A stretch of DNA of 55,027 nt from a virus (IMGVR_UViG_3300030116_003984:1-55027); one strand, 5' to 3'. Shown: positions 37,664 through 53,606, counted from the stretch's first letter. Made by a program: numbers and translations. The notes: generated from the letters alone by a model not told the origin.

Positions 37664-39409
37664 ATGGCTAAAAAATTTAAAACCTGGAATAATAGCTCTT
37701 TTACAGTTGGCGCTCCAACAGCTCGTGGCGCTACTCCAAAAGCAGGAAGTTCGTATGCAACAAAATGGTTTGTTTGCTCTAGAACTCCCTCAAGAGCTTT
37801 AGAGTTAATATTAAAAACAGCCCTGCCTCATTATTATTTGGAGTCAGAGCAGCAAGGACAAAATTTTTCAGTTAACTCTTGGACTGAAGTTCTTCAAGAT
37901 TACTGGAGTAATATAGGTAAAGGAAAATGTCCCAGAATAAAAGACATACCTGGTTTTAAAACAGACTTAAATTTTTCTCAAGGTTTTAGTTTAACATTTC
38001 CAAACGCAACAAAACGTCATTTTAAAAATTCAGAAACTGGTAGCGGTGCTATTGTAAATTATTCTATACCTCCAAATGTTAGCGGATATGTAAATCCATC
38101 GACAGTAGATGTAGAGGTAATACCTGGAAGTTGGAATGGTAAATACTATGAATACAATGATACTATTCAGTTATCTCCTTCATGGACTTACCATGCTGCT
38201 AGGCAAACAGCACCAGTTCCAGATTATTGTTTGCCAGAGCCTGGAACAAATTTATTTAATGATGTTCATGTGTCAAAGCCTGCATTGTATAGTGATAACG
38301 GAACAGGTTATCCTTCTGTCGGTTGGAAGGGTAATTCAAATGCTAGTATGCATGAACATTTAATTAAACCGCAGTTTCAATCAGTTAGTTTCCCTTCAAA
38401 TTTATATAACTTTATAGGTTCAACTCCTTATGCAGGTGGAACAGCTTTTGGAGCTGATACCTGGAAAGCAAGCTTGCATGCTCAAACTTATTATACTGGT
38501 CAAGGAAGCTACAGATATGAAGCTAACGCAAACAACCCAGCATTATTTAGGCAGTTTGATGCCTTGAGTGGTGAAACAAATGCAACTTTAGTTGTTGATA
38601 CTAATGGAGGATTACAAGGGGGCGTCATGATAAAACATACTGCTCAATCTTTTGAACAAGCATTGATACCTACTAATTTAACCGACACTTGCAGTAATCA
38701 ACCAATCTTTAACCATAGTAATATTGTGCAATCTGCACAAAGTGCAGCTGGTAATTTGCAAGCTGCAGATGCATACCTTAGAGCTTTTGGTAAAGATGCT
38801 TTTAATATGGGATATAATACTATTGACGGAAATGAAAATGATGCATTATTTTCTATTGATGGTTTTCATGATGGAATATTTGAAGTAACTGTTCCTATAT
38901 GGTGGAATGACGGAAGTTCAGTACCTTTTATTAATAATCAGAATCTGACAATTAATGCTCAATCATCCAATCCTCTTTATGGATTTAAAAGTGGCAACAC
39001 TTTAGCAGGGGTTGGTGCAAACATCAATGCCTTAGTAGCTACTACAAATCCAAACAATGTATTGTTTGTTGAATCAACAATATTTGGCTACAATGACGGA
39101 GGCCCTTGGGGTAACTGCGGCTATCCATTTGGTAGCACGTTATTTGATAATAATACTACGAGACTTTTTACAGTAAACCCACAACCTATGGGGACTTTTA
39201 TGCAAGGCGGTGTGTTTAACCCAATGGATGAAGATTTTTTATTTGTTGCTGACAGCGCTACTGTTAACAAAGCTAAGTTAGATGATTTAGAAAATACATC
39301 TTGGTTTCCTACGCATACAGCTTGTAAAAACCTTACTCCTTGTAGAAAATGTACAGTTAACAGTCTTGGAGGAGACCGATTAGTTACTAAGCATAAGTAT
39401 ATAAGCTAA
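37664..39409 (+). CDS. Hypothetical protein, N/G/S/T-rich, possibly structural
   Basis: 581 aa ORF with promoter; no motif recognised. Confidence 0.7.
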   Translation: MAKKFKTWNNSSFTVGAPTARGATPKAGSSYATKWFVCSRTPSRALELILKTALPHYYLESEQQGQNFSVNSWTEVLQDYWSNIGKGKCPRIKDIPGFKTDLNFSQGFSLTFPNATKRHFKNSETGSGAIVNYSIPPNVSGYVNPSTVDVEVIPGSWNGKYYEYNDTIQLSPSWTYHAARQTAPVPDYCLPEPGTNLFNDVHVSKPALYSDNGTGYPSVGWKGNSNASMHEHLIKPQFQSVSFPSNLYNFIGSTPYAGGTAFGADTWKASLHAQTYYTGQGSYRYEANANNPALFRQFDALSGETNATLVVDTNGGLQGGVMIKHTAQSFEQALIPTNLTDTCSNQPIFNHSNIVQSAQSAAGNLQAADAYLRAFGKDAFNMGYNTIDGNENDALFSIDGFHDGIFEVTVPIWWNDGSSVPFINNQNLTINAQSSNPLYGFKSGNTLAGVGANINALVATTNPNNVLFVESTIFGYNDGGPWGNCGYPFGSTLFDNNTTRLFTVNPQPMGTFMQGGVFNPMDEDFLFVADSATVNKAKLDDLENTSWFPTHTACKNLTPCRKCTVNSLGGDRLVTKHKYIS

Positions 39410-39651
39410 TGCCTAAAAAAAGAGATTATAAAAAAGAATACAAAAAATTCCAAGCGTCTGATAGAGCAAAAAAAAGACGTGCGGCTTTAAATAAATATAA
39501 CCGTAAGAAAGGAACGTACGGTAATGGCGATGGACTTGACGCTTCTCATAGAGGTGGAAAGATTGTTGGTTTTGAAAAAGCTAGCAAAAATCGTGGAAGG
39601 ATTGAAAAATCTAGAAGAAAAGGTTCCAAACGTAGAACTACTAAAAAATAA
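39409..39651 (+). CDS. Small basic HNH-like protein
   Basis: RDYKKEY...GDGLDASH...SKNRGR. Confidence 0.6.
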   Translation: MPKKRDYKKEYKKFQASDRAKKRRAALNKYNRKKGTYGNGDGLDASHRGGKIVGFEKASKNRGRIEKSRRKGSKRRTTKK

Positions 39652-39655
39652 AATT

Positions 39656-39730
39656 ATGTACGGTAAAAAGAAAATGGGTAAGAAAAAGCCTATGAAGAAG
39701 AAAAAGAAAGTAATGAAGAAAAAGAAGTAA
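39656..39730 (+). CDS. 24-aa poly-Lys peptide MYGKKKMGKKKPMKKKKKVMKKKK
   Basis: ATG after AAATAAAATT leader; fills the gap exactly. Confidence 0.6.
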   Translation: MYGKKKMGKKKPMKKKKKVMKKKK

Positions 39731-39732
39731 TT

Positions 39733-39930
39733 ATGGCATTTGTTAATAAAAATCTTCCTAAAAAACCAAGCTCAGGCCCTAGAATGGTAAAAGTTAGTCC
39801 TGGTGAAATGGGTCATGGTAACAGACCAAGACCAAGTAACATTATGCGTAACATTAATGTAATGCACGGGAACCAGCAAGTGTTTAATAAAAAAGTAAAT
39901 CCTGGCGGAGGGGACTGCGGTTGTGGCTAA
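39733..39930 (+). CDS. Small basic protein ending CGCG
   Basis: Tiles cluster. Confidence 0.6.
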   Translation: MAFVNKNLPKKPSSGPRMVKVSPGEMGHGNRPRPSNIMRNINVMHGNQQVFNKKVNPGGGDCGCG

Positions 39931-40222
39931 GAAGTTAGACAAAAGCAAAATGGCATGCAATAAGCCTAGACGCTCTCCGAATCCAAAGAAGAAGAGAGTT
40001 GTCAAGGCTTGTGCTAATGGCCAGGAAAAAATTATTCACTACGGAGCTACGGGTTATGGTCACAATTACTCCGCTGCTGCACGTAAATCTTTCAAAGCAA
40101 GACACCGTTGTAGTTCTGCCAAGAATAAATTATCTGCTAGATATTGGGCTTGTAAAAATTTATGGGCTGGCTCTGGCGGTTCTAAAAAATCATCTCCGAA
40201 AGGACGTAAAGGAAAATACTAA
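39923..40222 (+). CDS. Small basic protein (DUF5754/DUF6321-like)
   Basis: EKIIHYG...RKSFKARHRC...SARYWACKNLW. Confidence 0.7.
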   Translation: MAKKLDKSKMACNKPRRSPNPKKKRVVKACANGQEKIIHYGATGYGHNYSAAARKSFKARHRCSSAKNKLSARYWACKNLWAGSGGSKKSSPKGRKGKY

Positions 40223-40380
40223 TGGCAAAGAAAAAGAAATCAAATAAAATCTGTCCTGCTGGTATAGCTTGGGCTAAGCGTACATTTGATAAGTATCCAA
40301 GTGCATACGCTAACTTAGCAGCTTCTAAGTACTGCAAAGACCCAAACTACGCTAAGGGTGCAAAAAGAAAGAAAAAGTAA
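40222..40380 (+). CDS. 52-aa basic protein (PSAYAN motif)
   Basis: Hand translation MAKKKKSNKICPAGIAWAKRTFDKYPSAYANLAASKYCKDPNYAKGAKRKKK; TAATG-coupled at both ends. Confidence 0.75.
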   Translation: MAKKKKSNKICPAGIAWAKRTFDKYPSAYANLAASKYCKDPNYAKGAKRKKK

Positions 40381-40505
40381 TGGATAAAGCAAAACTAAAA
40401 AAGATTGCAGGTGAGCTAAGAAAAGCTTCTGCAATGCATAAATCACAAGCGGTGCGTATTGATAAAATGTTAAAGTCAATGACACCTAAAAAAAAGAAAA
40501 AGTAA
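40380..40505 (+). CDS. 41-aa basic protein
   Basis: MDKAKLKKIAGELRKASAMHKSQAVRIDKMLKSMTPKKKKK; TAATG-coupled. Confidence 0.7.
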   Translation: MDKAKLKKIAGELRKASAMHKSQAVRIDKMLKSMTPKKKKK

Positions 40506-40633
40506 TGGCTAAAAAAATGACACCAGCTCAAAAGCGTATTGCAAAAGCAGCACCACCATTTAACAAGATTACAGCTGCAGACTTTAGAGCACTAAAGAGA
40601 AACGGTGGTAAAAAGAAAAAAGGTAGAAAGTAA
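40505..40633 (+). CDS. 42-aa basic protein
   Basis: MAKKMTPAQKRIAKAAPPFNKITAADFRALKRNGGKKKKGRK; TAATG-coupled. Confidence 0.7.
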   Translation: MAKKMTPAQKRIAKAAPPFNKITAADFRALKRNGGKKKKGRK

Positions 40634-40878
40634 TGGGTGAATTAAAGAAATGGCTTAAACAAAAGTGGGTTCGTATAGGTACTGATGGCTCAATCAAGGG
40701 TGAATGCGGTACAAGTAAGAATAAAAAAAATCCAGACAGATGTTTGCCATTATCCAAGGCTAGAAGCCTATCAAAAGCAGAACGAGCTAAGACTGCTAGA
40801 AAAAAGAAAGCTGCAGGTAGCAAAGGAAAACAGTTTGTTGCCAATACAAAAAAAGCTAAAGTGCGTTCAAAGAAATAA
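40633..40878 (+). CDS. Small basic protein (DUF5872-like)
   Basis: LKKWLKQKWV...CG...RCLP.SKARSLS.AER. Confidence 0.7.
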   Translation: MGELKKWLKQKWVRIGTDGSIKGECGTSKNKKNPDRCLPLSKARSLSKAERAKTARKKKAAGSKGKQFVANTKKAKVRSKK

Positions 40879-40884
40879 TAAGCG

Positions 40885-40950
40885 TAACCACGCTACACTT
40901 GTAGTGTAACCACATTACACTTGTAGTGTACTCTCATTACACTTATATTG
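40885..40950. repeat. Three tandem 22-bp repeats containing palindrome TACACT-N3-AGTGTA
   Basis: TAACCACGCTACACTTGTAGTG / TAACCACATTACACTTGTAGTG / TACTCTCATTACACTTATATTG. Confidence 0.85.
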
Positions 40951-40959
40951 CACTACTTC

Positions 40960-40998
40960 AAGGTTAATACACTTACCCCCAGTGTGTTAGCCTTTTTT
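40960..40998 (+). terminator. Terminator-like hairpin after the basic-protein operon
   Basis: AAGGTTAATACACT/AGTGTGTTAGCCTT 14-bp stem with two G-U pairs, then T run. Confidence 0.65.
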
Positions 40999-41032
40999 AA
41001 TGCCTATATATACCTTTATAATGTTTAGTGTC

Positions 41033-41062
41033 TTGCTAGTATATATGACGCACATATGTTTG
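41033..41062 (+). promoter_or_regulatory. Probable early-region promoter
   Basis: TTG-N19-TATGTTTG, matching the consensus seen at other operons. Confidence 0.55.
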
Positions 41063-41413
41063 GGGTGGGGGTTTATGCATGCGTACGTACACTTACATTG
41101 CAATACCCAAACCGAATATCCCAACGGGGTGGGGTCTTATCTAGTCAGCGCTAGTTATCTTTCTCTAGTGGGAACTCGTGCGCTCCGTGGCCACCCCCTA
41201 GCGCCCTCGGTGGCTCTATCTAGTGGCCTCTAGTGGCTTATCTGTCGCCCTCGATAGGTTTCTAGTGGTTGGCGCAAGTGTTTTTATGTGCGCTAACCCC
41301 TACGCCCTATCTAGTATATTACAGAGTTTAACCTAGACAGCCCCCTAAAATTGTTTTGTGTACCCCCCTTTCTTCTCTAGTAATTTGGTGATTACGATTT
41401 GTTTTTGTGTGTT

Positions 41414-41730
41414 TGAGGTGTCGACAGCAAACGAGCAACAGACACGAGGCAAACGCCTCACCCACATATTGCGATACAGGTGTAACACGAGAGTGCAACA
41501 CATATGAGTTCAAGCGGTTGCAATACCGCCTAATACCCTCGGAGCATCTAGTAAGCAAGTTTGATTCACAAGCGTAACCATTGGGGGCGGTACGAGGGTT
41601 GGAAACCTCGGCTAAATTCTGGTAAGAGCAAGAATACCTTTGATTTCTGATAGCTTTAAGGTATAGGTGTAAGCTATCCCTACCGACAACACGGGAGGAC
41701 ACTCTTTCGAGGGAGTGTGTAATATGTGTT
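41414..41730 (+). ncRNA. Unassigned structured RNA domain
   Basis: GC-rich and non-coding; 10-bp helix 41463-72/41719-28 encloses several hairpins (GAGA, GCAA and UUCG-type loops; 8-bp 41649-56/41671-78). Confidence 0.6.
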
Positions 41731-41733
41731 CTA

Positions 41734-41829
41734 GGTGGACTAGAACGACTACGAGTAATTCATTCGTGCTAGAGACCATTATGGTTGACGTATCTAGCTA
41801 CTCGAGGGGAGCAATACCCCTGTCCACTA
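41734..41829 (+). ncRNA. tRNA-like four-way-junction element
   Basis: 7-bp acceptor-like stem GGTGGAC/GTCCACT, 3-bp D-like arm, long arm CGAGTA/TACTCG + GCTAGA/TCTAGC, 5-bp stem with 7-nt loop AGGGG-AGCAATA-CCCCT. Confidence 0.5.
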
Positions 41830-41851
41830 CTAACTTAAATTTATTTCAATC

Positions 41852-42064
41852 ATGACAAATCAAGTATTATCATTCGACTTAGACCTAGTAAACGAGGCAG
41901 TTCAACTAGGTGTGAACAAGAGAATAATCAACAACTACCGAGTAAACCCTGAGTTCCAAGAGGCTATGGAGCTAGAGGAGGCTATCGAGGAGCAAAGATA
42001 CTCCCTAGCGTATGCTTACAGCATCTCTAGGTTTGCCGTAGAGAAGACAGAGGTGTCTTGCTAG
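41852..42064 (+). CDS. First early gene, hypothetical acidic protein
   Basis: 70 aa, A/T-rich leader; stop abuts the ribozyme. Confidence 0.7.
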   Translation: MTNQVLSFDLDLVNEAVQLGVNKRIINNYRVNPEFQEAMELEEAIEEQRYSLAYAYSISRFAVEKTEVSC

Positions 42065-42173
42065 AGTTACACTGATGAGGCCTCAAAGGTCGAAACACTA
42101 GAGAATATCAATAGGCGACCTAGCCGAAGCTACTCGACTAAAGTGATGAGATATTACTCTAGTGTCTGTAACT
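42065..42173 (+). ncRNA. Hammerhead ribozyme (type I topology), predicted cleavage after C42166
   Basis: Stem I AGTTACA/TGTAACT; core CTGATGA; stem II GGCCT-CAA-AGGTC; GAAA; stem III CACTAGAG/CTCTAGTG; GTC triplet. Confidence 0.9.
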
Positions 42174-42191
42174 AACAAAATTTATATCACT

Positions 42192-42509
42192 ATGGATTAC
42201 GCATTCTCAACAATTTCAACACTCAAGCACCTAGAAGGGATGTTTTGGGAGGACTGCAAAATAAATTTAGATACTTTTGGGTTTATTACATCTAGACATA
42301 GGGGAGAGTTAATTGAACTCCACTGGCATAGCGCAGGTAAACAAAAGTCCTTTTCAGATTTAATCAAGAGTATCGAGAACCTTCGTGTACTTTCTTACAT
42401 CAAGGAACTAAACTGCGTATGGAAAGCCGAACAAGGATGGTTTGATATAAGCATAAAGGTAGAGATTGAGGAAGGATACACCTATGATGTTTCAATTACA
42501 TTACACTAG
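42192..42509 (+). CDS. Hypothetical early protein (start revised from 42162 to ATG 42192)
   Basis: The GTG at 42162 lies inside the ribozyme; ATG 42192 has an A-rich leader. Confidence 0.65.
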   Translation: MDYAFSTISTLKHLEGMFWEDCKINLDTFGFITSRHRGELIELHWHSAGKQKSFSDLIKSIENLRVLSYIKELNCVWKAEQGWFDISIKVEIEEGYTYDVSITLH

Positions 42510-42513
42510 AACT

Positions 42514-42843
42514 ATGAAGAAGATAATCCTAGGAGTATTGAGCGTAGCTTTGCTATGCTCTTGCTCCAAAGATGAGTATGAGGTTTCTCCTACTTATCTA
42601 GAACAACAGCTATCTGTCGAAGGCGACTACATTACATACTATGTAATCAACGCTAAAGATATGGTAAGCGAAACCCTAGTGGCTACATACGAAGGTGTCG
42701 AGTACACTACTGATGATATGCCTAGGAATAACGGAGAGATATTTATCTTTCCCATAACATACCCTAACCTAGCAGTAACGCTAGATAGTAACATACCAAA
42801 AGAACAAATAACATTTACCCTAGGTGGTAAACAAATTAACTAG
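42514..42843 (+). CDS. Lipoprotein (start revised to 42514)
   Basis: MKKIILGVLSVALLCS-C-SKDEYE signal peptide II. Confidence 0.7.
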   Translation: MKKIILGVLSVALLCSCSKDEYEVSPTYLEQQLSVEGDYITYYVINAKDMVSETLVATYEGVEYTTDDMPRNNGEIFIFPITYPNLAVTLDSNIPKEQITFTLGGKQIN

Positions 42844-42845
42844 AT

Positions 42846-43166
42846 ATGATAAGATATGAACTTTACTTTGCCTTAGGTGGCAAACACACGGACAATGCAG
42901 AACAAGTAAACTTGGAGAAGGTACTAGAATTAGTATGCGATACCTTTGGTGGCTATTCACTACAAAAGATACAAGGTGGGTGGAAACATTATACGGGTAA
43001 CGCTTGGGTAATGTTAGAAGAAGATAGCTACCGACTAACAATCTTTACATATAGTGTAAAACCAGATAAGCATAAGCTATCCCTATTATGCGACTACATC
43101 AAAACAAACTTTCAACAAGAGGAGGTTATGTACACTGAAGAAGAAGTAAAGGTAGTAAGGATATGA
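42846..43166 (+). CDS. DUF3574/PII-fold protein, candidate SAM lyase
   Basis: FGGYS...GGW...EEDS...IK..FQQEEV. Confidence 0.5.
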   Translation: MIRYELYFALGGKHTDNAEQVNLEKVLELVCDTFGGYSLQKIQGGWKHYTGNAWVMLEEDSYRLTIFTYSVKPDKHKLSLLCDYIKTNFQQEEVMYTEEEVKVVRI

Positions 43167-43246
43167 CACCGATAGACCTAGCAGTTTACCTAACGATATA
43201 CTACTTTGTAGTATTTTTGCTAAGATATATTAAACAAGAAAAATAA
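43163..43246 (+). CDS. 27-aa membrane peptide
   Basis: MTPIDLAVYLTIYYFVVFLLRYIKQEK; ATGA overlap. Confidence 0.5.
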   Translation: MTPIDLAVYLTIYYFVVFLLRYIKQEK

Positions 43247-43250
43247 AATT

Positions 43251-43355
43251 ATGGTAAAAAAATGTAGTATATGTAGGGCAAAATTTATACCTACAAACAA
43301 AAATGCAGAGACAAGACAATGTTGTAAAAAATGTATAAAAGAATTTAATAAATAA
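43251..43355 (+). CDS. 34-aa zinc-ribbon peptide
   Basis: MVKKCSICRAKFIPTNKNAETRQCCKKCIKEFNK. Confidence 0.55.
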   Translation: MVKKCSICRAKFIPTNKNAETRQCCKKCIKEFNK

Positions 43356-43359
43356 AATT

Positions 43360-43503
43360 ATGAAAAAAGATATAAATTTTTATAGAGAATGCTTGATAAG
43401 AGAATTAAGAAAACCTCTCAATAAACAAGATTTTATGTATATGAGATTTTTAGATGAAAAGATATACAAATTAAAAGAAAAAGAACTAACTAAAATTAAA
43501 TAA
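43360..43503 (+). CDS. 47-aa hypothetical protein
   Basis: MKKDINFYRECLIRELRKP...; same leader as neighbours. Confidence 0.55.
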   Translation: MKKDINFYRECLIRELRKPLNKQDFMYMRFLDEKIYKLKEKELTKIK

Positions 43504-43507
43504 AATT

Positions 43508-43759
43508 ATGGACAAACACGATTACATAGATATATACGACTTGACCGAGAAGATTACAAGAGCAATACTAATGGGACAAGAGGCGTATGTAATAAACAAT
43601 GGCAAGATGAACTCACATGTACTAGATTTGCCTACACCACAAACATCAGGTACTTGGACACAAAGAGAGTCATACGCTAGAATGAAAGCACAAGTATTGG
43701 TAGATAGATACAATAAAATGCAAACACAAATTTACAATAATGAAAGCAAAGAAAACTAA
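43508..43759 (+). CDS. Hypothetical early protein
   Basis: Tiles operon. Confidence 0.65.
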   Translation: MDKHDYIDIYDLTEKITRAILMGQEAYVINNGKMNSHVLDLPTPQTSGTWTQRESYARMKAQVLVDRYNKMQTQIYNNESKEN

Positions 43760-43856
43760 AAGACAAGCTAGAGTAGAAATAGCTGAGCAACTACTGATGT
43801 ATTTTTTTGTACTAGGTATGATATGCTCAATAATTTACAACCTCATAAACCACTAG
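43740..43856 (+). CDS. 38-aa membrane peptide
   Basis: MKAKKTKRQARVEIAEQLLMYFFVLGMICSIIYNLINH. Confidence 0.5.
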   Translation: MKAKKTKRQARVEIAEQLLMYFFVLGMICSIIYNLINH

Positions 43857-43858
43857 AA

Positions 43859-44125
43859 ATGAACGACTTAACAAAGCAAGATGTAGAAAACTACATCAAG
43901 GAACTAGGATGCGAACCTAGACACAACACATGGGCGATAGCAGAAGCGTGTAACGAACTAGATTATCTATGGGATGACCTACCTAGTGCTGATGCACTAA
44001 TGAGGTTTATTCTAGGTAATGAGCCGATTAAAGGAATGTGGACACATTCGTACGGCTTTCATACTGCTTCTGGTAGAGCAATCGTAGAACAATTTACTAA
44101 CTATTACAATCAATACAATGAGTAG
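43859..44125 (+). CDS. Hypothetical early protein (start revised to 43859)
   Basis: ATG 2 nt after previous stop; THSYGFHTASGR. Confidence 0.6.
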   Translation: MNDLTKQDVENYIKELGCEPRHNTWAIAEACNELDYLWDDLPSADALMRFILGNEPIKGMWTHSYGFHTASGRAIVEQFTNYYNQYNE

Positions 44126-44345
44126 AACACAACACGGAACATACTCGGAAAAGATAAACGACAACATACTAGAGATAGAGTATGAGTATTACTATGCACC
44201 TGCTACACACTACGACCAAGAAGAAGAAAGCGTAGATGTAACCAAGGTACTAGCTAACGGAAATGATATAACTGATTTCTATTGGGATTTCTTTGATACA
44301 GAGATAATGCACGATAGAATACTAGATTATTGCAGAGGTAACTAA
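44118..44345 (+). CDS. Acidic hypothetical protein
   Basis: EIEYEYYYAPAT...ANGNDITD. Confidence 0.65.
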   Translation: MSRTQHGTYSEKINDNILEIEYEYYYAPATHYDQEEESVDVTKVLANGNDITDFYWDFFDTEIMHDRILDYCRGN

Positions 44346-44365
44346 CAAATTAAAACTAAATTAAA

Positions 44366-44572
44366 ATGGAACAGATTAACTTTATGAAAATGTTTATGGC
44401 TATGACAGATATAGCTAGTGAAACTAGAGAACAAAAACTTGCTAACAGAGAGCGTATTGTATTTGCAACGCACGGAATAATCAAGCCAAAAGATTGGGAT
44501 ACTCTACCTATGGAGGAGAGAGAGTCAAGAATAGATAATATGCTAGAAGCAACTAAAGATATTACGAAATGA
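44366..44572 (+). CDS. Hypothetical protein
   Basis: GIIKPKDWDTLPMEERESR. Confidence 0.65.
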   Translation: MEQINFMKMFMAMTDIASETREQKLANRERIVFATHGIIKPKDWDTLPMEERESRIDNMLEATKDITK

Positions 44573-44937
44573 AAGACAATAAACGAACAACAAAGCAAGT
44601 AATAGCAGAACAACAAGCTATCAATAGAAAGCTATGGGCAAAAGAAAATGGTAGATTACATCACGTTGACGCTAATAAACTAATAGCAGAATTTATGGGA
44701 TTACATCCTTTGAGTAGGGCGAGTTTTATTTCAGATAAAAATCAAGAATATTATGAAAGTTTATCAGAACTAAAATACCACACCTCTTGGGATTGGCTTA
44801 TGCCTGTAATAGAAAACATAGACCACTTACAGCACGAACCTGTTGTGTCTATTGAAAACGCTTTAGCCACAAGGAGTATAGATGACACCTATAAATCAGT
44901 AGTGGAATTTATTAAACAATACAACAATGAAGATTAG
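44569..44937 (+). CDS. Hypothetical protein (NKLIAEFMG...YHTSWDWLMPVIE family)
   Basis: Motif common in Bacteroidota phages. Confidence 0.65.
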   Translation: MKDNKRTTKQVIAEQQAINRKLWAKENGRLHHVDANKLIAEFMGLHPLSRASFISDKNQEYYESLSELKYHTSWDWLMPVIENIDHLQHEPVVSIENALATRSIDDTYKSVVEFIKQYNNED

Positions 44938-45301
44938 ATTTGAATGGACAACTAGGGAGGCCTATCTCCTAGACAAACTAGAAAAGAATACGATAGGTAA
45001 ATTAAAAGAAGCAACAACAAAAGTTAAAACTAAATTTCAAAACATCATGAACAAACTAACAACAAAGACAATGACACCAAAACAATATGATGACTTGTGG
45101 GAATCAATCGAAGATAAGCTAGATGATTTGTATAACAACAACCCTGATAGCTACGACCTAGAAAATTACGACTTTAGATTAGAGGGTAATGAGATTTATC
45201 TAGAAGATATGACAATGGGGTACGACCATAACCACTCAGCACAAATGGTACTAAAGCTATTGGCAGAAGAAGGTATAATCAAAATAAAAAATAAAAAGTA
45301 A
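44927..45301 (+). CDS. Hypothetical protein
   Basis: Tiles operon. Confidence 0.6.
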   Translation: MKIRFEWTTREAYLLDKLEKNTIGKLKEATTKVKTKFQNIMNKLTTKTMTPKQYDDLWESIEDKLDDLYNNNPDSYDLENYDFRLEGNEIYLEDMTMGYDHNHSAQMVLKLLAEEGIIKIKNKK

Positions 45302-45693
45302 TGGGATACAGAAGTACAATAATTTTTGGGGTGGAGCAGAGCCACGCCCCAAAGCTAGATGATATATTGATAGAACACCAAATGTTTGCAGATTTAAGGG
45401 TATCTAAAATTTACCCTAATTACGAGATGGTTCAAGACGACCATGGAGATTCTAAATCTTGGAAGAAGGTGGGTGATGTGCAAATGGTTATTTATAGGTT
45501 TGAATACTTGAAGTGGTATGATGATTACCCAGAGGTCATGGCTATAACTAAATATCTAGAAAAACTACATGAAGAAACTGAAGACACTACATTCCTTGTT
45601 GGATTAGGAGAGGAAGGTGAGATACATTCAGAGATTGGCGATTGGTATAATTATGTAGACCACATATCTAAATTAGAAATACAAGATATATAA
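45301..45693 (+). CDS. Hypothetical protein (MGYRS...KWY..YPEV family)
   Basis: Common phage early-protein motif. Confidence 0.65.
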   Translation: MGYRSTIIFGVEQSHAPKLDDILIEHQMFADLRVSKIYPNYEMVQDDHGDSKSWKKVGDVQMVIYRFEYLKWYDDYPEVMAITKYLEKLHEETEDTTFLVGLGEEGEIHSEIGDWYNYVDHISKLEIQDI

Positions 45694-45696
45694 ATA

Positions 45697-46170
45697 ATGA
45701 ACATATTTTATTTACACGAAGACCCAGAGGTATGTGCATCATACTTCTATGACAAACACAAAGTCAAGATGATACTAGAGTCTGCTCAGATGCTATGCAC
45801 TGCACACCACCATTACGGCAGAGGGGAGCATGTACCTTACAAGAAGGCACACTACAACCACCCCTCTACCATATGGACTAGGGAGAGTACCCAACACTAC
45901 ACATGGCTTTGGCTACACATGATGGCTTTGGGTGAGGAGTATACTAGAAGGTATGGTAAGCAACACCTCACTATCATCAAGTGTGCAGATGCTTTGTGCG
46001 TACCTCCTAGCGATATGCCTAACACTACATTCGTTCCACCCCCTCAATGTATGCCTGATGAGTTCAAGCACGAGGATACTATTACTGCCTACTGGAATTA
46101 CTACGTGGGGGAAAAGCATAGCGTAGCAAACAAGAATGAACGAATATATTTCAAACCTTTTACAAGATGA
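45697..46170 (+). CDS. Pyrimidine dimer DNA glycosylase/DenV-family protein
   Basis: MNIFYL...DKH..KMILESAQML, H.NHPSTIW.RES, EYT.RYGK.H, PPQCMPD. Confidence 0.75.
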   Translation: MNIFYLHEDPEVCASYFYDKHKVKMILESAQMLCTAHHHYGRGEHVPYKKAHYNHPSTIWTRESTQHYTWLWLHMMALGEEYTRRYGKQHLTIIKCADALCVPPSDMPNTTFVPPPQCMPDEFKHEDTITAYWNYYVGEKHSVANKNERIYFKPFTR

Positions 46171-46415
46171 GTAAACACAGAATACCAAACGAAAAATGGA
46201 TGGAGTTTGTTAGCGAAATAGCTACACAACTCACCGAACTAAACTTTCATGAAGACACCTTTATAGCTATTCAAAGTGATGATGCAGTAGATGAGGAATA
46301 CAAATTTACAGAAGATGCACAAGAGTTCTTCAATGAAAGATATGATGAAGTAGAAACACTACTAGAGAATATGCTAGATATAACTAACGATAAACCAGAG
46401 TATTATGAAGGATAA
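46167..46415 (+). CDS. Acidic hypothetical protein
   Basis: FTEDAQEFFNERYD. Confidence 0.65.
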   Translation: MSKHRIPNEKWMEFVSEIATQLTELNFHEDTFIAIQSDDAVDEEYKFTEDAQEFFNERYDEVETLLENMLDITNDKPEYYEG

Positions 46416-46548
46416 TGAACCAACAATGAGAGATGGGGCTAGATTGTTTGCTATAATGCTAATTACAGAATTAAAAAAGCAAGGCCAACACAAGTCGGTA
46501 GAAATTGTTACAGAAACATTAAAAAAATTAAAGAAAAATGAAAGTTAA
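46405..46548 (+). CDS. 47-aa hypothetical protein
   Basis: Hand translation MKDNEPTMRDGARLFAIMLITELKK...; fills gap with overlaps. Confidence 0.5.
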   Translation: MKDNEPTMRDGARLFAIMLITELKKQGQHKSVEIVTETLKKLKKNES

Positions 46549-47592: not shown

Positions 47593-47611
47593 AAAAATAT
47601 GTTTATATTTG
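47582..47611 (+). promoter_or_regulatory. Promoter for replication/recombination operon
   Basis: TTG-N19-TATATTTG. Confidence 0.8.
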
Positions 47612-47630
47612 CAACCCACAACAACAAATT

Positions 47631-47822
47631 ATGATAAATAAAGATGATATTCATAAGAGGTTACTTGATATAGTAGCCAACCTGCCTGATAACAAAGAGA
47701 GCAGGTCTTTAGGTTTAATTATTTCTACAATAGGTTTAGCAATTACTATCGGTAAGTTAGAAGAATTGTCAGACCTATGTGAGAAACAAAGTAAAGATTA
47801 TATTAACCAGATAATAAATTAA
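47631..47822 (+). CDS. Hypothetical protein
   Basis: First ORF after promoter. Confidence 0.6.
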   Translation: MINKDDIHKRLLDIVANLPDNKESRSLGLIISTIGLAITIGKLEELSDLCEKQSKDYINQIIN

Positions 47823-47825
47823 TTT

Positions 47826-48419
47826 ATGAAAGACAACATGAAGATTTGGAAGAGTGTCGAGAAGACAAACCCCAAATACACAAAGGCAGTTAACTTTGGA
47901 AGAAAGTTCACAACGATTAACGCACAATATCAGATAATGACTGCAACAGAGCAGTTCGGCCCCTATGGAAAAGGATGGGGTGTTCGCAATGAAGAGTTCA
48001 AAATGATATGTGATGGCTTACTATCCTACCAAGCAGATATGTTTTGGAGAGATGAAGCAGGAGAAGTAAATCATTTCTCTATCAACTCATCAATAGGAAC
48101 TCATTCAAAAGCGGGTAAGCTAGACGAAGACTGCTACAAAAAAGTATCTACGGATGCGCTTACTAAAGGATTGTCCAAGCTAGGTTTTTCTGCTGATGTA
48201 TTCCTAGGTATGTGGGATGATAACAAGTATGTCGCACAAGTCAAAGAAGAGTTTTCTGAAAAGAAAAAACCATCCGCAAAGAAGAAGATGACAAAGGAGG
48301 TTATGGATGCCATGATGAAAGCAATAGAAGATGGTAAGTCTGATGTAGTTAAGGGCAGAATGTCTTCCTACACAATGACTAAAGCACAACAGGATAAACT
48401 AACTAAAGCACTAAAGTAA
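47826..48419 (+). CDS. Rad52/Sak-like ssDNA annealing protein
   Basis: ATEQFGPYGKGWG and KKVSTDALTKGLSKLGFSADVFLG. Confidence 0.7.
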   Translation: MKDNMKIWKSVEKTNPKYTKAVNFGRKFTTINAQYQIMTATEQFGPYGKGWGVRNEEFKMICDGLLSYQADMFWRDEAGEVNHFSINSSIGTHSKAGKLDEDCYKKVSTDALTKGLSKLGFSADVFLGMWDDNKYVAQVKEEFSEKKKPSAKKKMTKEVMDAMMKAIEDGKSDVVKGRMSSYTMTKAQQDKLTKALK

Positions 48420-49198
48420 TGTTAACACAGGGAAATATTGAAGAAGAGATTATCAGACTTTCTGATGATGAAAGCTATTACGCTGATAATGAGTACATTA
48501 CAAACTCTATGTTGTCAAAACTAAACAAGAGTCCTCTTGAGCTGTATGCATACATGAATGGAGATTTGGATACAAACACACAAGCATTAAACTTTGGTAA
48601 AGCATTTCACACAGCCATACTAGAGCCAGAAAAAATGGAGAACGTTGCTGTATTTGATGGCAAGAGAAAGGTTGGTAAAGCATGGGATGTATTTCATGCA
48701 GAAAATCACGACAAGATAATACTCACTCAAGATGAGATGACTACACTTGAAAGTATGTTTGCTAGATTAAGCTCTAACCCTATGGCTTGTGAGCATATGA
48801 TGTTAGATGATAAATCAACTCAAACAGAGATAGTAAACATATGGGAGAATAATGGTTTGTATTGTAAAGGTAAAGCTGATATTGTAAACTACGACAAAGG
48901 AGTTATGGTTGACTTGAAGACCACATCAAACGCATCACCAAGAGAGTTTGAGAGAAGCGTTTACAAGTATGGTTATCACAGGCAGGCGGCCTACTACCTA
49001 GATGGATTTGGGTTAGAAAAGTTTACCATTGTTGCAATAGAAAAGAAGTTCCCATTTAACATGGGTGTCTACACTTTATCTGATGAAACAATACAGAAAG
49101 GTAGAGAGGAGATTGAGGACTTAATGAAAGAGTACCACACAAGATTTATTATTGAAGAATTTAACCCCGATGAGTATTGTTATTGGGAAACTATTTAA
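48419..49198 (+). CDS. RecE/exonuclease VIII-like PD-(D/E)XK nuclease (DUF3799-like)
   Basis: FGKAFHTAILEP, CKGKADI, DLKTT, YGYHRQAAYY. Confidence 0.8.
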   Translation: MLTQGNIEEEIIRLSDDESYYADNEYITNSMLSKLNKSPLELYAYMNGDLDTNTQALNFGKAFHTAILEPEKMENVAVFDGKRKVGKAWDVFHAENHDKIILTQDEMTTLESMFARLSSNPMACEHMMLDDKSTQTEIVNIWENNGLYCKGKADIVNYDKGVMVDLKTTSNASPREFERSVYKYGYHRQAAYYLDGFGLEKFTIVAIEKKFPFNMGVYTLSDETIQKGREEIEDLMKEYHTRFIIEEFNPDEYCYWETI

Positions 49199-49200
49199 AT

Positions 49201-49665
49201 ATGGATGATACGCTAACTGGCATACTCCGAGATGTCTGCATGGTTTTAGATGTAGATGTTTCGGATGTTATGGGAAAAACAAGAACAAGAGACCTGGTAG
49301 AAGCCAGGGTTATTTACGCTAATATAGCTAGGATGTACACATATCACACGCTTACAGATATTGGCAATACGATAGGTAAAGACCACTCGTCTATTGTGCA
49401 CTATGAAAAAACGCACAACGACCTATCAAAGTATGATAAAGAATATCAACAAAAAATTAGAGACTGCAAAGCTGTTGTAGTTCCTAGAAAAAAAATACAA
49501 GAGTCAAAGTTAAGGTGTTTGATTGATAGAGTTTATTACAGAAATCAGTTTTTACAAAATAGATTAGTAGATGCTTTACAAGAAAATGAAAAACTAAAAT
49601 CTCTAATTAAAGAAAAGTCTAATGCACTTAATGTTTTACAGGAAAGTTTTACACAAAGTTTGTAA
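49201..49665 (+). CDS. DnaA C-terminal-like HTH protein with coiled coil
   Basis: RTRDLVEAR...LTDIGNTIGKDHSSIVH; ATG at 49201. Confidence 0.7.
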   Translation: MDDTLTGILRDVCMVLDVDVSDVMGKTRTRDLVEARVIYANIARMYTYHTLTDIGNTIGKDHSSIVHYEKTHNDLSKYDKEYQQKIRDCKAVVVPRKKIQESKLRCLIDRVYYRNQFLQNRLVDALQENEKLKSLIKEKSNALNVLQESFTQSL

Positions 49666-49918
49666 AGATAAAGACTTGAAAAGAGTTGATGTGGAGTTAC
49701 TGCTATTTGGCAGTGGCCTAGATTACTTTTCTCAAAACAATCTATTCAACCACTTTCCTGCTTCAAGAACAACAATCATACATAGTCTACAAAGACTTAC
49801 TGAAGAGGGTTACCTCAAGATTGTTAGACAAAGAAGCAAGCATAAGTCAAGATTATACAGAATTTCTGGAAAGTCCAGAAGAATAACAAATGAAATTTAT
49901 AACCAATTATCAAATTAA
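49622..49918 (+). CDS. Winged-helix (MarR-like) protein
   Basis: SRTTIIHSLQRLTEEGYL...RLYRIS.K. Confidence 0.6.
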   Translation: MHLMFYRKVLHKVCKDKDLKRVDVELLLFGSGLDYFSQNNLFNHFPASRTTIIHSLQRLTEEGYLKIVRQRSKHKSRLYRISGKSRRITNEIYNQLSN

Positions 49919-49921
49919 ATT

Positions 49922-50197
49922 ATGTCAGACAAGAAAATTTATGTAGGAAACGGAACTGAAAAGTTCAACGGAGACTTAGTAGAGTTCTCTGTAAATTTAA
50001 GTAGAATTACAAAGGAGGCATCAGAGCACATCTTTGAATATAACGGAGAGAAGTTTATTAAACTTGTTGTAGCAAAGAAACAAGGCGGAGCTGATGACTA
50101 CGGAAAGACGCACTATGTAAAGGTGGACACCTTCAAACCAAAAGCACAAGCTGAACCAGCTGTGGTTGAGGAAGAAGAGGATGACTTACCTTTCTAG
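49922..50197 (+). CDS. ssb: Single-stranded DNA-binding protein
   Basis: YGKTHYV.VDTFKP and acidic tail EEEEDDLPF. Confidence 0.6.
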   Translation: MSDKKIYVGNGTEKFNGDLVEFSVNLSRITKEASEHIFEYNGEKFIKLVVAKKQGGADDYGKTHYVKVDTFKPKAQAEPAVVEEEEDDLPF

Positions 50198-50219
50198 TCA
50201 CTATGTTAATAATGTTAAT

Positions 50220-50243
50220 CGAGGGGTGAAAGCCCCTCGTTTT
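50220..50243 (+). terminator. Terminator hairpin after ssb
   Basis: CGAGGGG-TGAAAG-CCCCTCG-TTTT. Confidence 0.7.
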
Positions 50244-50254
50244 AGCCCTTCATC

Positions 50255-50461
50255 ATGATAAAAAAAATTAAATATAGAGAGCCAAAAGAAAAGCTAGAGA
50301 TACCTAAAGTAATTAGAGAGGATATATCGTATTACCTAATGACTGGATGGGTTCATAGATATAGTCAAGATAGAGCTCTTGAATTACTAAATAGTAGGAG
50401 ATACTACACAAGAATATACGAATATGAAAACAGAGGAACTAATACAGAAGGTTGGGAATGA
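50255..50461 (+). CDS. Hypothetical protein
   Basis: Tiles operon. Confidence 0.5.
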   Translation: MIKKIKYREPKEKLEIPKVIREDISYYLMTGWVHRYSQDRALELLNSRRYYTRIYEYENRGTNTEGWE

Positions 50462-50738
50462 GGTAATTGAATTACTCATATCAAAGAACAGGTCTTATGG
50501 AGACAGCGCTACTAATCCATGCAACATCTTTTCTAAAGGTAGTGCGATTGATAGCTTATGTGCAAGACTTGATGATAAGTTAATGAGGATAAAAAATAAA
50601 GGCATTAATGACGAAACAGAGGATACTGTACAGGATATAATAGGTTACCTTATATTGCTAAAGGTTGCCATGTTAAAGGATAAAGAATCTTATGAAAAGC
50701 TTTTAGAAAAACAAGGGTATAATTATGTCCAAGGATAA
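50424..50738 (+). CDS. Nucleotide-modification-associated helical protein (DUF1599-like)
   Basis: KNRSYGDS...RLDDKLMRI...EDTVQDIIGYLIL. Confidence 0.7.
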   Translation: MKTEELIQKVGNEVIELLISKNRSYGDSATNPCNIFSKGSAIDSLCARLDDKLMRIKNKGINDETEDTVQDIIGYLILLKVAMLKDKESYEKLLEKQGYNYVQG

Positions 50739-51096
50739 TTGTAAAGGATACGTTAGAATACCTAATGCCATAAAATGCGATAATAGATTAACCGCTATGG
50801 CTAGGCTTTTGTATGGTGATATTCTATCACTATCATCATCATCAGGTTGCTATGCAGGTAACAAATACTTTAGTAACACATACTCCTGCTCAATCAAAAC
50901 CATATCAAGAGCTATAAAGCAATTAGAAGAGTATGGATATATTCAAATAGAAAACAACAACAACTCCAAAAGATATATAATACCATTACTTAATACAGAG
51001 ACAAAAATGTCCAAGTACAAGGACAAAGGTGTCTCACATAATAAGAATAATAAAAAAGGTTTTATTAACGTAGATGGAGAACAAATTTATGTATAA
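50725..51096 (+). CDS. Short replication-initiator-type wHTH protein (HTH_36-like)
   Basis: ARLLYGDI.SL...GCYAGNKYF...TISRAIKQLEEYGYI. Confidence 0.7.
   Translation: MSKDNCKGYVRIPNAIKCDNRLTAMARLLYGDILSLSSSSGCYAGNKYFSNTYSCSIKTISRAIKQLEEYGYIQIENNNNSKRYIIPLLNTETKMSKYKDKGVSHNKNNKKGFINVDGEQIYV
51000..51033. repeat. Iteron-like pair GACA-N4-TGTC, 22 bp apart, inside the initiator gene
   Basis: GACAAAAATGTC at 51000 and GACAAAGGTGTC at 51022. Confidence 0.65.
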
Positions 51097-53341: not shown

Positions 53342-53606
53342 TTCAACAAAAAGAGCTATACTGATAGGTGTATATGATTCATTGATGGAAACATTTCACC
53401 CTAAAGCAAAAAGAAACGTCATGCAGTCAAAGTTAACTTATGAGCAAGAACTGTATTTAAGAAATTTAAAAGTTAACATAGAAGAGATTTTAAGCAAACC
53501 AGAAAAGATAGACAGGGTTATTAATTATTTTTCTAACACAGAAGAATATGAAGTTTGTACAGACCTAGCTGAAATAAAAAACGCTATAGAAGAAAATGCC
53601 TCGTAA
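53334..53606 (+). CDS. Hypothetical protein with UVR-like motif
   Basis: EEYEVC..LAEI. Confidence 0.55.
   Translation: MDNSTKRAILIGVYDSLMETFHPKAKRNVMQSKLTYEQELYLRNLKVNIEEILSKPEKIDRVINYFSNTEEYEVCTDLAEIKNAIEENAS

Follow-up and report, generated by a model that had tools for sequence, protein, structure and literature searches.

Clusters of GATC, a 4-bp palindromic methylation site, lie at oriC of E. coli and at the pac site of phage P1. The stoperators of Cluster A mycobacteriophages are dispersed repressor sites, 13 bp long and asymmetric, placed mostly between genes, and HIP1 of cyanobacteria is a highly iterated palindrome of 8 bp found genome-wide. In early mRNA, the endoribonuclease RegB of phage T4 has GGAG as its target. 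The word CTAG is generally rare in bacteria and phages, and phages normally purge palindromes. The literature on CTAG and palindromes includes CTAG profiling in Salmonella (PMC5337935) and PMC3077040, and long non-coding early RNAs are reported for the Cellulophaga crAss-like phage phi14:2 (bioRxiv 10.1101/2020.03.07.982082).

Here we analyse a window of 55,027 bp, the whole 55-kb record of an uncultured marine podophage of Flavobacteriia type. An earlier note, made from the sequence alone, had pointed to the purging of palindromes by phages, rightly so for GATC, CCGG and CGCG, each of which occurs zero times across the entire genome. CTAG goes the opposite way, with a 3.9-fold local excess.

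A local excess of CTAG

The window contains 232 CTAG in total. Between 41030 and 46450 there are 69 (the count is identical for 41000-46450), where the rest-of-genome frequency predicts 17.8, base composition 17.9 and a maximal-order Markov model 41.4. The genome outside this region holds 163 sites against 159.3 expected, an observed-to-expected ratio of ~1.0. Counted per kb from 41001, the sites number 19, 18, 10, 10, 8, 5 and 1, with 0-9 elsewhere in the genome. Among all strand-symmetrised 4-mers, CTAG ranks first as an outlier when the region is compared with the rest (z 12.1), and a 5-kb sliding 4-mer scan gives it a z of 11.8, with CGAG the runner-up at 7.9. The enrichment that the earlier note had reported from hand counts is therefore confirmed as the strongest local outlier; its counts matched the exact ones for 41030-42170 (25), 41030-46450 (69) and 47600-54200 (17), and for the first 2 kb (1-2000) its figure of ~11 was of the right order, the exact count being 10. 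Two accounts do not fit these numbers: avoidance of CTAG as a restriction site, given the excess inside the region and the expected frequency outside it, and a HIP1-like genome-wide over-representation, the excess being found only in 41.0-46.45 kb.

Table 1. Features in and around the CTAG-rich stretch (window coordinates)
Feature	Position	Strand	Remarks
Terminator-like hairpin	40960..40994	+	14 pairs then T run; ends upstream + strand operon (37664-40878)
Non-coding leader	40995..41851	.	0.86 kb; 16 CTAG; ~45% G+C vs genome 35%
CTAG-rich stretch	41030..46450	.	69 sites, density declining away from leader
CTAG array	41137..41383	+	10 sites; 7 as TCTAGT, 4 as TCTAGTGG
ORF1, first ORF past leader	41852..42064	+	70 aa; 6 CTAG in 213 nt
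Predicted type I hammerhead ribozyme	42065..42173	+	ORF1-ORF2 spacer; descriptor scan
Fourteen small ORFs	42192..46415	+	mostly without family match; CTAG 0-24 per kb by ORF
Lipoprotein-like ORF	42514-42843	+	among the fourteen small ORFs
phrog_624 / Pyr_excise-like gene	45697-46170	+	among the fourteen small ORFs

The CTAG-rich stretch starts directly after the terminator-like hairpin (Table 1). We presume the region to be early because of its gene order, in which the hairpin is followed by the leader, by small unknown ORFs and then by the replication module. Of the 69 sites, the non-coding leader (40900-41850) has 16 and the part behind it (41851-46450) has 53, and their density across the ORFs is very uneven, from 0 to 28 per kb. 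ORF1 has no family match and a predicted fold of low confidence (pLDDT 69.5, pTM 0.36); CTA-G spells four of its five Leu-[VADEG] dipeptides, and the ORF ends in a C-TAG stop.

A phased array in the non-coding leader

TCTAGT accounts for eight of the 16 leader sites, and the spacing runs in ~11-bp steps. Within the array, successive sites are 10, 14, 33, 22, 10, 32, 49, 22 and 44 bp apart, and eight of the ten are kept in G001, the closest relative. The 11-bp periodicity has a z of 2.1 in the window leader and of 4.0 in the G001 leader (30 sites), and is absent from the coding part. Conservation with G001 is far above that of the flanks in the leader core (41060-41440); 41445-41722 is not alignable with G001, and an ORF at 41000-41233 is broken there by a 4-nt indel. 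The array thus has the properties of iterons or operators, being a repeated short motif that is non-coding, helically phased and conserved in relatives. The likeness of the coding sites to the leader motif seems slight at most: a leader-derived matrix does not score them above rest-of-genome sites in the window (p 0.10), though it does in G001 (p 0.006).

Neither a methyltransferase nor an endonuclease nor any clear regulator that binds DNA came out of searches of the region with Pfam, PHROGs and NCBIfam, and Pfam gave the same result for 11 genes found only in G001. Across the window, 68 proteins searched against PHROGs and 36 and 7 against Pfam yielded no methyltransferase. ORF1, a DnaA_C-domain protein (49177-49665) and an HTH_36 protein (50725-51096) may be named, as guesses, as candidate binders of the leader array.

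Codon usage and context at the coding sites

The 47 sites in 13 ORFs comprise 31 CTA-G, 13 xCT-AGx and three xxC-TAG stops. The sites accordingly have the origins given in the earlier note, namely CTA-G leucine codons, C-TAG stops and non-coding DNA, except that its stop at 43856 is not in frame. Regional codon usage differs broadly, with T3 lower and C3, A3 and CpG higher, and CTA makes up 51% of Leu codons. When proteins and regional codon usage were kept in synonymous shuffles (n=5000), 32.2 CTAG (sd 3.4) were obtained and none of the 5000 reached the observed 47. The excess thus survives the codon-shuffled control that the earlier note had proposed, with 15 sites left unexplained, and we reject a pure codon-usage artefact. 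Since shuffles with late-gene usage yield 14.2 CTAG in the ORFs, against 32.2 with regional usage and 47 observed, the codon shift (CTA/xCT) represents roughly half of the coding excess and context the remainder.

The contribution of context is visible at individual junctions. Leu-[VADEG] is written CTA-G in 31 of 47 cases in the region, compared with 11 of 51, 1 of 23 and 24 of 213 in other gene sets, and [SPTA]-[SR] is written xCT-AGx in 12 of 26, compared with 6 of 49, 11 of 47 and 55 of 252. Within the CTN family, CTA is chosen in 31 of 33 codons before G versus 24 of 36 otherwise (p 0.006), whereas all other codon families pooled show no A-G junction preference (OR 1.18, p 0.32). TAG serves as stop in 5 of 13 ORFs of the region and in 2 of 18 in each of two other gene sets. 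Silent neighbours of CTAG are depleted in the window and in G001, respectively: CCAG (0.22x and 0.17x), CTGG (0.28x and 0.29x), CTTG (0.48x and 0.47x) and TTAG (0.47x and 0.60x). No such depletion is seen in either phage for CTAA, CTAT and GTAG, the non-silent neighbours.

Distribution among relatives

The earlier note had suggested looking for the hot spot in relatives. It is kept in G001, with 80 CTAG in 5 kb, and in the corresponding position in L183 and L180; conservation is shallow beyond. The region has a mosaic structure in which roughly half cannot be aligned with G001, and CTAG is abundant even in the unalignable parts, at 17.9 per kb in the window (42097-42823) and at 43.5 and 19.2 per kb in G001 (939-1375 and 2836-3148). 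L100, from the next clade, has a weak version: 12 CTAG in 735 nt immediately upstream of its own predicted hammerhead and little otherwise, its leader carrying repeats other than CTAG. Because the strong effect is limited to one tight clade, the relatives do not constitute independent evidence.

A milder trend runs through the family. CTA has a median share of Leu codons of 0.26 upstream and 0.15 downstream in 44 relatives; this higher use of CTA for leucine in genes upstream of the replication module is family-wide, and CTAG is therefore mildly raised there in most relatives. Upstream sites outnumber downstream ones in 35 of 41 further loci, with medians of 17 and 13 and an upstream maximum of 28; the excess in these relatives is only ~1.4-fold, and the same measure gives 64 versus 17 for the window. 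The CTA-G share of Leu-G is 0.68 in the window and 0.67 in G001, whereas the 44 relatives have a median of 0.25 and reach 0.43 at most. Word enrichment reaches a z of 13.5 in the window and 12.6 in G001, and stays below 10 for any word in any relative; relatives favour different words in their early regions (TCGA, ACGA, CGAA, AGTC, and CGAC/ACAC in MW202828).

Three genes common to the window and L100 contain 15 and 7 CTAG, respectively, six of them shared. At nine sites present only in the window, the L100 sequence takes seven different forms, some of them separated from CTAG by a transversion or by two steps, and therefore no single mutation route explains them. CTA-G codons are not better kept than other degenerate codons, with 12 of 14 versus 153 of 184 unchanged in G001 and 16 of 19 versus 141 of 163 in L180.

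A predicted hammerhead ribozyme

The element between ORF1 and ORF2 combines a CUGAUGA core and a GAAA core with three stems and with a GUC triplet after which cleavage is predicted (42166/42167). Stems I/II/III comprise 7/5/8 pairs in the window, 8/5/8 in G001 and 6/4/9 in L100. Stem III, ACUAGAG/CUCUAGU in the window with two CTAG sites, reads UAGGGGA/UCCCCUA in G001 and ACUAAGG/CCUUAGU in L100, the sequence being changed and the pairing kept, and stems II and III covary over these three lineages. With core, three helices, cleavage triplet and compensatory changes all found, the element is probably a genuine hammerhead. Known type I and RAGATH-1 hammerheads (RF03152, RF00008; see also PMC3088659) share its cores, stems and triplet; the window element and its counterparts differ in a 30-52 nt insertion in stem III and in Rfam scores below the gathering thresholds (RF00008, 24.2 against 48.5; RF03152, 29.1-34.5 in L169, L183 and L180 against 56.3). 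With the predicted ribozyme, an early phage operon would include a self-cleaving RNA.

Discussion

Our best reading, which we hold tentatively, is that a lineage-specific selection favours CTAG on DNA through a 4-bp reader. Pressure on the nucleic acid, as the earlier note had it, is plausible because the excess survives local codon usage and the hot spot is conserved, unalignable parts included; the shallow conservation and the absence of protection at individual sites weigh against that view. On top of the family-wide use of CTA, the lineage of the window and G001 would favour CTAG itself in the leader and the first ~5 kb. In the observed pattern, CTAG is written wherever the protein permits, stops are turned into C-TAG, CTGG, CCAG, CTTG and TTAG are drained, and sites about one helical turn apart crowd the untranslated leader. 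Selection would act on double-stranded DNA, through a two-fold symmetric reader belonging to the phage or its host, which might be an enzyme akin to methyltransferases or endonucleases or else a small protein that binds as a dimer. Against this reading stand the searches that returned no such reader, the share of plain codon usage in the coding excess, the uneven density among ORFs and the missing 11-bp phasing of the coding sites. The phased leader array may be the densest loading site, which the early-gene sites would extend, and the purpose could be early transcription control, replication start, packaging or the marking of the end of the DNA presumed to enter first.

The main rival, which we consider somewhat doubtful, is a compositional by-product combined with an unrelated control region in the leader. 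Early genes would be a fast-exchanging accessory pool with a signature of its own (CTA-rich, CpG-rich and CAG/CTG-poor), the window lineage would lie at the extreme of the range, nothing would read CTAG inside genes, and the leader TCTAGT repeats would be ordinary iterons or operators, for an origin, a packaging site or early promoter control, in which CTAG is incidental. The family-wide trend, the other words enriched in relatives, the mosaic and ORF-to-ORF unevenness of the region, the lack of added silent-site conservation at CTA-G and the different leader repeats of L100 all agree with it. It leaves the 15 sites beyond the local-usage shuffle unexplained, however; the preference for CTA before G is missing in relatives and for other A-ending codons, the window and G001 lie far beyond the family range, and one word marking both leader repeats and genes would have to be a coincidence. 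A function in RNA is unlikely in our estimation. CUAG would be selected in the early transcript as a self-pairing word forming local stems, as an endoribonuclease target timing mRNA decay or to titrate an RNA-binding factor, and the hammerhead would free the densest 5' part, leader and ORF1, as a separate RNA. The leader does fold somewhat better than shuffles (z -1.9, -2.6 and -2.6), and CTAG pairs serve as hairpin arms (four in the window leader, seven in that of G001), among them a conserved UUCUAG-GUGGA-CUAGAA and ribozyme stem III; the sole dense patch of L100 adjoins its hammerhead, and phi14:2 offers a precedent for long non-coding early RNAs. Yet a step of 11 bp reflects the DNA helix, most near pairs in the window do not pair (4 of 12 do in the leader and 2 of 11 among coding sites), and CTAG density shows no sharp drop at the ribozyme in the window or G001.

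Biased mutation or repair seems improbable. VSP-like repair or gene conversion could restore CTAG in heteroduplex, which would be frequent in a recombining arm, or methylated CCAG could be deaminated, consistent with the fall of CCAG, CTGG and TTAG as CTAG rises, with the mosaic structure of the arm and with the absence of site-specific conservation. The rest of the genome nevertheless sits at its CTAG expectation, transversions and two-step changes occur among the differences at sites found only in the window, and we saw no preference for CCTAG or CTAGG flanks; transcription-linked deamination is disfavoured because third positions on the coding strand carry more C rather than less. We give least credence, and very little, to an oriented Chi-like word (ACTAGA/TCTAGT) that would protect against nucleases entering from a genome end in the leader. 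On the + strand, the leader shows eight TCTAGT to one ACTAGA and the coding part 24 R-CTAG-A to one T-CTAG-Y, and density declines with distance from the leader. Coding constraints alone, however, provide 85% of the forward orientation, so that the 18 to 0 inside ORFs, where they lead one to expect 15%, has a p of 0.05, and orientations in the G001 leader are mixed (6, 6 and 6).

Selection for CTAG on DNA, our preferred reading, might also be one instance of something broader, although we think this rather unlikely: palindrome-purging phage lineages would each adopt one short palindrome, here CTAG, as a positive mark on the first-expressed arm, perhaps also the first to enter, with the word differing from lineage to lineage. 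The mark would be read by a factor of phage or host, for example an enzyme that modifies DNA or a protein that coats it or loads onto it and nucleates on the phased leader array. Such marking of early-arm DNA might represent a general class not described before.

Analyses of phage genomes usually look for the sites that are avoided. A word raised locally against codon habit, on a leader and the first genes, would point to a factor outside the family libraries that reads it positively in DNA (or RNA); such a reader, if it exists, would be a new layer in the control or protection of the first part of a phage genome, and CTAG-cutting enzymes are a ready bench handle. If the signal is merely compositional, the early-gene pools of marine phages would keep their own oligonucleotide signature, which would matter for host prediction and k-mer binning.

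Among known systems, phi14:2 is alike in layout, a long untranslated stretch heading the early region of a marine Flavobacteriia phage (10.1101/2020.03.07.982082); those parts of the account on which we draw make no mention of CTAG. The window phage also carries a crAss muzzle-like domain, and differs in that no virion RNA polymerase motif was found in it. The GATC clusters of oriC and P1 pac likewise place many copies of one 4-bp palindrome in a few hundred non-coding bases, at a location likely to control replication or packaging, with the sites inside a slightly longer repeat (TCTAGT in the window, TGATCA/G in P1). They differ in that the window enrichment continues for 5 kb through genes, and no CTAG methyltransferase is known or was found here. 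The stoperators resemble the window sites in that a single word sits at operator-like positions and is also strewn along transcription units, but the window shares a 4-bp core only, the extended motif not being clearly common to leader and genes. HIP1 is also a short palindrome raised inside genes by silent codon choice; the word of the window is 4 bp long and confined to 5.4 kb of a phage.

Genome organization

The window is a linear viral record of 55,027 bp with an estimated completeness of 90%, and its terminase is 35–40% identical to those of Flavobacterium phage elemo, Maribacter phage Panino, Cellulophaga phages and the uncultured podovirus MW202828. Public runs containing this phage derive, among the 20 matches listed (all Logan contigs, none from RNA), from marine metagenomes; contigs from 4 of these runs showed neither molecule ends nor steps in depth. 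GC skew tracks gene orientation only, and it is from gene order that we infer 41.0–46.4 kb to be the 'early' arm.

Features of the window and of related loci (coordinates of the latter refer to each locus)
Feature	Position	Strand	Remarks
Late genes	2–37497	−	
Terminal giant protein	2–7441	−	More than 2,480 aa in the window; 3,189 aa in the closest relative, G001
2,529-aa virion protein	11187–18776	−	crAss muzzle-like N-terminus (PF25731, 41.7 bits)
Gene block	37664–40878	+	Closed by terminator-like hairpin
Tandem hairpin	40880–40960		2–3 copies (TACACT-TGT-AGTGTA within GTAACCAC...-type repeat) after the stop of ORF 40633–40878; in G001 stems kept, loop changed to ACA
Terminator-like hairpin	40960–40994	+	Ends the plus-strand block
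Leader	40995–41851		About 0.86 kb without credible ORF, directly after the hairpin
15 small ORFs	41852–46415	+	Followed by recombination and replication module
Type I hammerhead, predicted	42065–42173	+	Directly after the stop of ORF1 (first ORF after the leader), between ORF1 and ORF2
Hammerhead stem I		+	AGUUACA/UGUAACU
Hammerhead cores		+	CUGAUGA; GAAA
Hammerhead stem II		+	GGCCU/AGGUC
Hammerhead stem III		+	ACUAGAG/CUCUAGU; loop about 50 nt (long insertion)
Predicted cut	42166/42167	+	Cleavage triplet GUC
ORF with lipoprotein-type signal	42514–42843	+	MKKIILGVLSVALLCSC...; 8 CTAG per 330 nt; CTA-G at 6/6 Leu-[VADEG] dipeptides
AT-rich island	43200–43510		28% G+C, zero CTAG; two tiny ORFs (34 aa with CxxC...CCxxC; 47 aa); AAATAAAATTATG three times, at successive starts
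Protein with DnaA DNA-binding domain	49177–49665	+	Bac_DnaA_C, 50.3 bits
HTH_36 replication-initiator-like protein	50725–51096	+	
Related hammerhead, L169 (locus of G001)	4586–4682		
Related hammerhead, L100 (next clade)	3367–3450		
Different hammerhead candidate, L121 (related locus)	4559–4608		Compact
Leader of L100	1870–2440		Other repeats: four palindromes of TTTAGAAT-N-TCTAAAT type; 3–4 27-nt hairpin repeats (GTAACT...AGTTAC)

CTAG is enriched over the arm of a palindrome-purging phage

Hand counts in an earlier note (about 25 CTAG in 41.03–42.17 kb, 70 in 41.0–46.45 kb, 17 in 47.6–54.2 kb and 11 in the first 2 kb) were borne out, the exact figures being 25, 69, 17 and 10. The window holds 232 CTAG in total. 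Base composition predicts 17.9 CTAG for the region 41030–46450, where 69 occur; a maximal-order Markov model predicts 41.4, and scaling from the remainder of the genome 17.8. That remainder is itself at expectation (163 vs 159.3). CTAG is the top 4-mer outlier between region and rest (z 12.1), leads a sliding scan of 4-mers (z 11.8; next word 7.9) and declines away from the leader through 19, 18, 10, 10, 8, 5 and 1 per kb. A literature search, mostly at title and abstract level, found no earlier description of CTAG being locally enriched in the early region of a phage.

Across the whole window GATC, CCGG and CGCG are absent (about 177, 53 and 53 expected from composition) and TCGA occurs 32 times against about 177 expected, indicating that the phage purges palindromes. 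The whole genome of G001 gives the same picture, with GATC, CCGG and CGCG absent and TCGA low; among 80 related loci only L100–L102, L104–L106 and L169 are GATC-free.

Codon usage explains roughly half of the coding excess

Within ORFs the word falls as CTA-G (31 sites), as xCT-AGx (13) and as C-TAG stops (3). Of the Leu codons, CTA provides 51% in the region, compared with 22% for the replication module and 10% for late genes; none of the 106 Leu codons in the region is CTG. Codon usage differs broadly, with T rarer and both C and A commoner at third positions, and CpG depletion is milder in the region (rho 0.65 vs 0.48). The earlier note had concluded, from sites in Leu codons, stops and non-coding DNA alike, that selection appears to act on the nucleic acid, and control for codon use upholds this in part. 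Synonymous codons redrawn from late-gene usage yield 14.2±3.2 sites and shuffling within the region 32.2±3.4, compared with 47 observed, a number reached in 0 of 5,000 shuffles. A codon shift thus explains roughly half of the excess in ORFs; the remainder persists, as CTA chosen right before G and xCT right before AG.

Leu-[VADEG] is written CTA-G in 31 of 47 cases in the region vs 11/51, 1/23 and 24/213 in other gene sets, and among CTN codons CTA is chosen in 31 of 33 cases before G vs 24 of 36 otherwise (p 0.006). A general A|G junction bias is ruled out by the other codon families (pooled OR 1.18, p 0.32). The silent one-step neighbours CCAG, CTGG, CTTG and TTAG are down 2- to 5-fold in the region, while CTAA, CTAT and GTAG are not depleted. 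Other words also shift on the arm of both the window and G001: CAG/CTG words are depleted (CCAG plus CTGG 8 vs about 32 expected; CAGC 0.21x) and CpG words raised (CGAG 4x with both strands pooled and about 7x on the plus strand; TCGA 5.5x). We rejected a hidden-stop ('ambush') explanation because off-frame stops are not raised overall (per 100 codons, 10.1 vs 8.8 and 7.9 in the +1 frame; 9.3 vs 12.6 and 12.9 in the +2 frame). Searches for tRNA genes were negative for the window, for G001 and for MW202828, hence no phage tRNA-Leu(UAG) was found.

A phased array in the leader

The leader (about 45% G+C) contains 16 CTAG, eight of them as TCTAGT. Ten lie in 41137–41383, at spacings of 10, 14, 33, 22, 10, 32, 49, 22 and 44 bp. 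An 11-bp period reaches z 2.1 for this leader and z 4.0 for that of G001 (30 sites); helical phasing is absent from the coding part. Conservation with G001 in the leader core (41060–41440) is far above that of flanking genes, and the same comparison reveals a 4-nt indel interrupting the only plus-strand ORF. No Rfam family fits the leader, whose predicted folding is slightly better than that of shuffled sequences (z −1.9 to −2.6). Hairpin pairing was rejected as a general cause of CTAG, since few CTAG pairs form arms and most do not. The leader has no canonical DnaA box; repeats starting TTATC are present there.

Coding sites were also compared with the array and across relatives. A matrix of the leader sites gives no clear fit to them (window p 0.10, G001 p 0.006), and coding constraints account for most of the forward orientation that R-CTAG-A shows within ORFs (p 0.05). 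Aligned blocks, which include the highly conserved leader, keep 33 of 43 window CTAG in G001 vs 60% of all 4-mers. Where the amino acid is conserved, G001 retains 12 of 14 CTA|G codons unchanged (other degenerate codons 153/184) and L180, a closest-clade locus, 16 of 19 (141/163). CTAG density across ORFs ranges from 0 to 28 per kb.

A predicted hammerhead ribozyme follows ORF1

The type I hammerhead predicted behind ORF1 keeps all three stems in G001 and L100, with stem II altered and stem III reading UAGGGGA/UCCCCUA and ACUAAGG/CCUUAGU, respectively; the three lineages differ by compensatory changes in both of these stems. Bit scores against Rfam fall short of threshold (Hammerhead_3 24.2; RAGATH-1 hammerhead 29–34.5 in relatives), and the type III reading of the Rfam alignment is ruled out because its stem III cannot form in G001. 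Two or three CTAG sites lie in the hammerhead. As judged from sequence, cleavage would separate a leader-plus-ORF1 RNA from the remainder of the operon.

No factor recognizing CTAG was found in the region or among the 11 tested genes that only G001 carries. The predicted fold of ORF1 is of low confidence, and an Atlas search returned no usable match. The terminal giant virion protein has no family match, no match among PDB sequences and no DFDxD motif. Motifs of D[FY]DxD type are absent from three large window proteins (2480, 2529 and 507 aa) and from the 3189-aa G001 protein, leaving a crAss-type virion RNA polymerase in the window unsupported; a single DFDND is present in a G001 protein of 462 aa and is missing from its window homologue.

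Distribution among relatives

G001 (64,677 bp, complete) is 72–90% identical to the window along the genome. Although its record is classed linear, the two ends share a 19-nt overlap and homology to the window continues across them, so the assembly is closed into a circle and was opened within the phrog_624 gene. Its homologous 5 kb carry 80 CTAG, 31 within the leader kilobase, compared with a density of about 3 per kb elsewhere. The two phages cannot be aligned over about half of the arm, and the unrelated inserts there are CTAG-rich as well, reaching 43.5 per kb. In two metagenome fragments from the clade of these phages the density is 12 and 19 CTAG per kb. By blastn the region had no match among 50,697 phage records, and an exact leader 20-mer had none in viral_contigs; G001 carries this 20-mer, so near records seem to be omitted there.

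L100, also GATC-free, has 12 CTAG in 735 nt, all within ORFs one and two, and 2.9 per kb beyond them. Three genes common to it and the window contain 7 and 15 CTAG, respectively, 6 of them shared; the nine window-only sites correspond to seven different words in L100, transversions included. Leaders seem to carry lineage-specific repeat sets.

For distant relatives we used 80 loci found via the phrog_624 gene, 41 of them with 5 kb on both sides. CTAG is higher upstream in 35 of the 41 (median 17 vs 13 downstream), with an upstream maximum of 28; the window has 64 and 17. The CTA share of Leu is likewise higher upstream (median 0.26, maximum 0.39, vs 0.15 downstream; 44 loci). The CTA-before-G effect is absent from these 44 loci (median 0.25, maximum 0.43, vs 0.68 in the window and 0.67 in G001).

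Possible origins of the excess

The pattern has two layers: a family-wide CTA-rich signature of the early genes, and a lineage-specific one that bears on the word CTAG itself, inside genes and outside them. For the latter we tentatively prefer selection at the DNA level by a reader that recognizes a symmetric 4-bp word and would have its densest site in the phased leader array; loading sites, modification targets and decoys, as proposed in the earlier note, would fall under this reading. The CTAG-rich unrelated inserts are consistent with it. The lack of extra silent-site conservation at CTA|G codons, uneven ORF density, an unclear matrix fit and an orientation mostly predicted by coding count against strong site-wise selection. 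The first two would also sit comfortably with the main rival, in which coding CTAG is unread and an extreme early-pool composition coexists with ordinary iterons that contain CTAG. The broad codon shift points the same way, the excess over shuffles the other, and we consider this rival nearly as likely as the preferred reading.

Use of CUAG at the RNA level, to which the hammerhead sites and slight leader folding might be related, appears improbable given how few sites pair. Biased repair or mutation is a poor candidate, given the variety of words that L100 has at window-only sites. An oriented Chi-like word, for which the R-CTAG-A bias might speak were it not mostly predicted by coding, deserves hardly any weight.

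Other early arms in the family are raised in different words, mostly CpG-containing (TCGA, ACGA, CGAA, AGTC), none with z >10. TCGA reaches 28 vs 5.3 in the upstream 5 kb of loci L100–L179, and AGTC is raised in three loci. Phage elemoE is depleted in CTAG overall (72 vs 176 expected), and the arm of MW202828 (MW202828.1, 42.5–48 kb) is raised in CGAC (66 vs 14.2), ACAC and ACGA. Family-wide, the DNA upstream of the replication genes carries a k-mer signature distinct to that arm.
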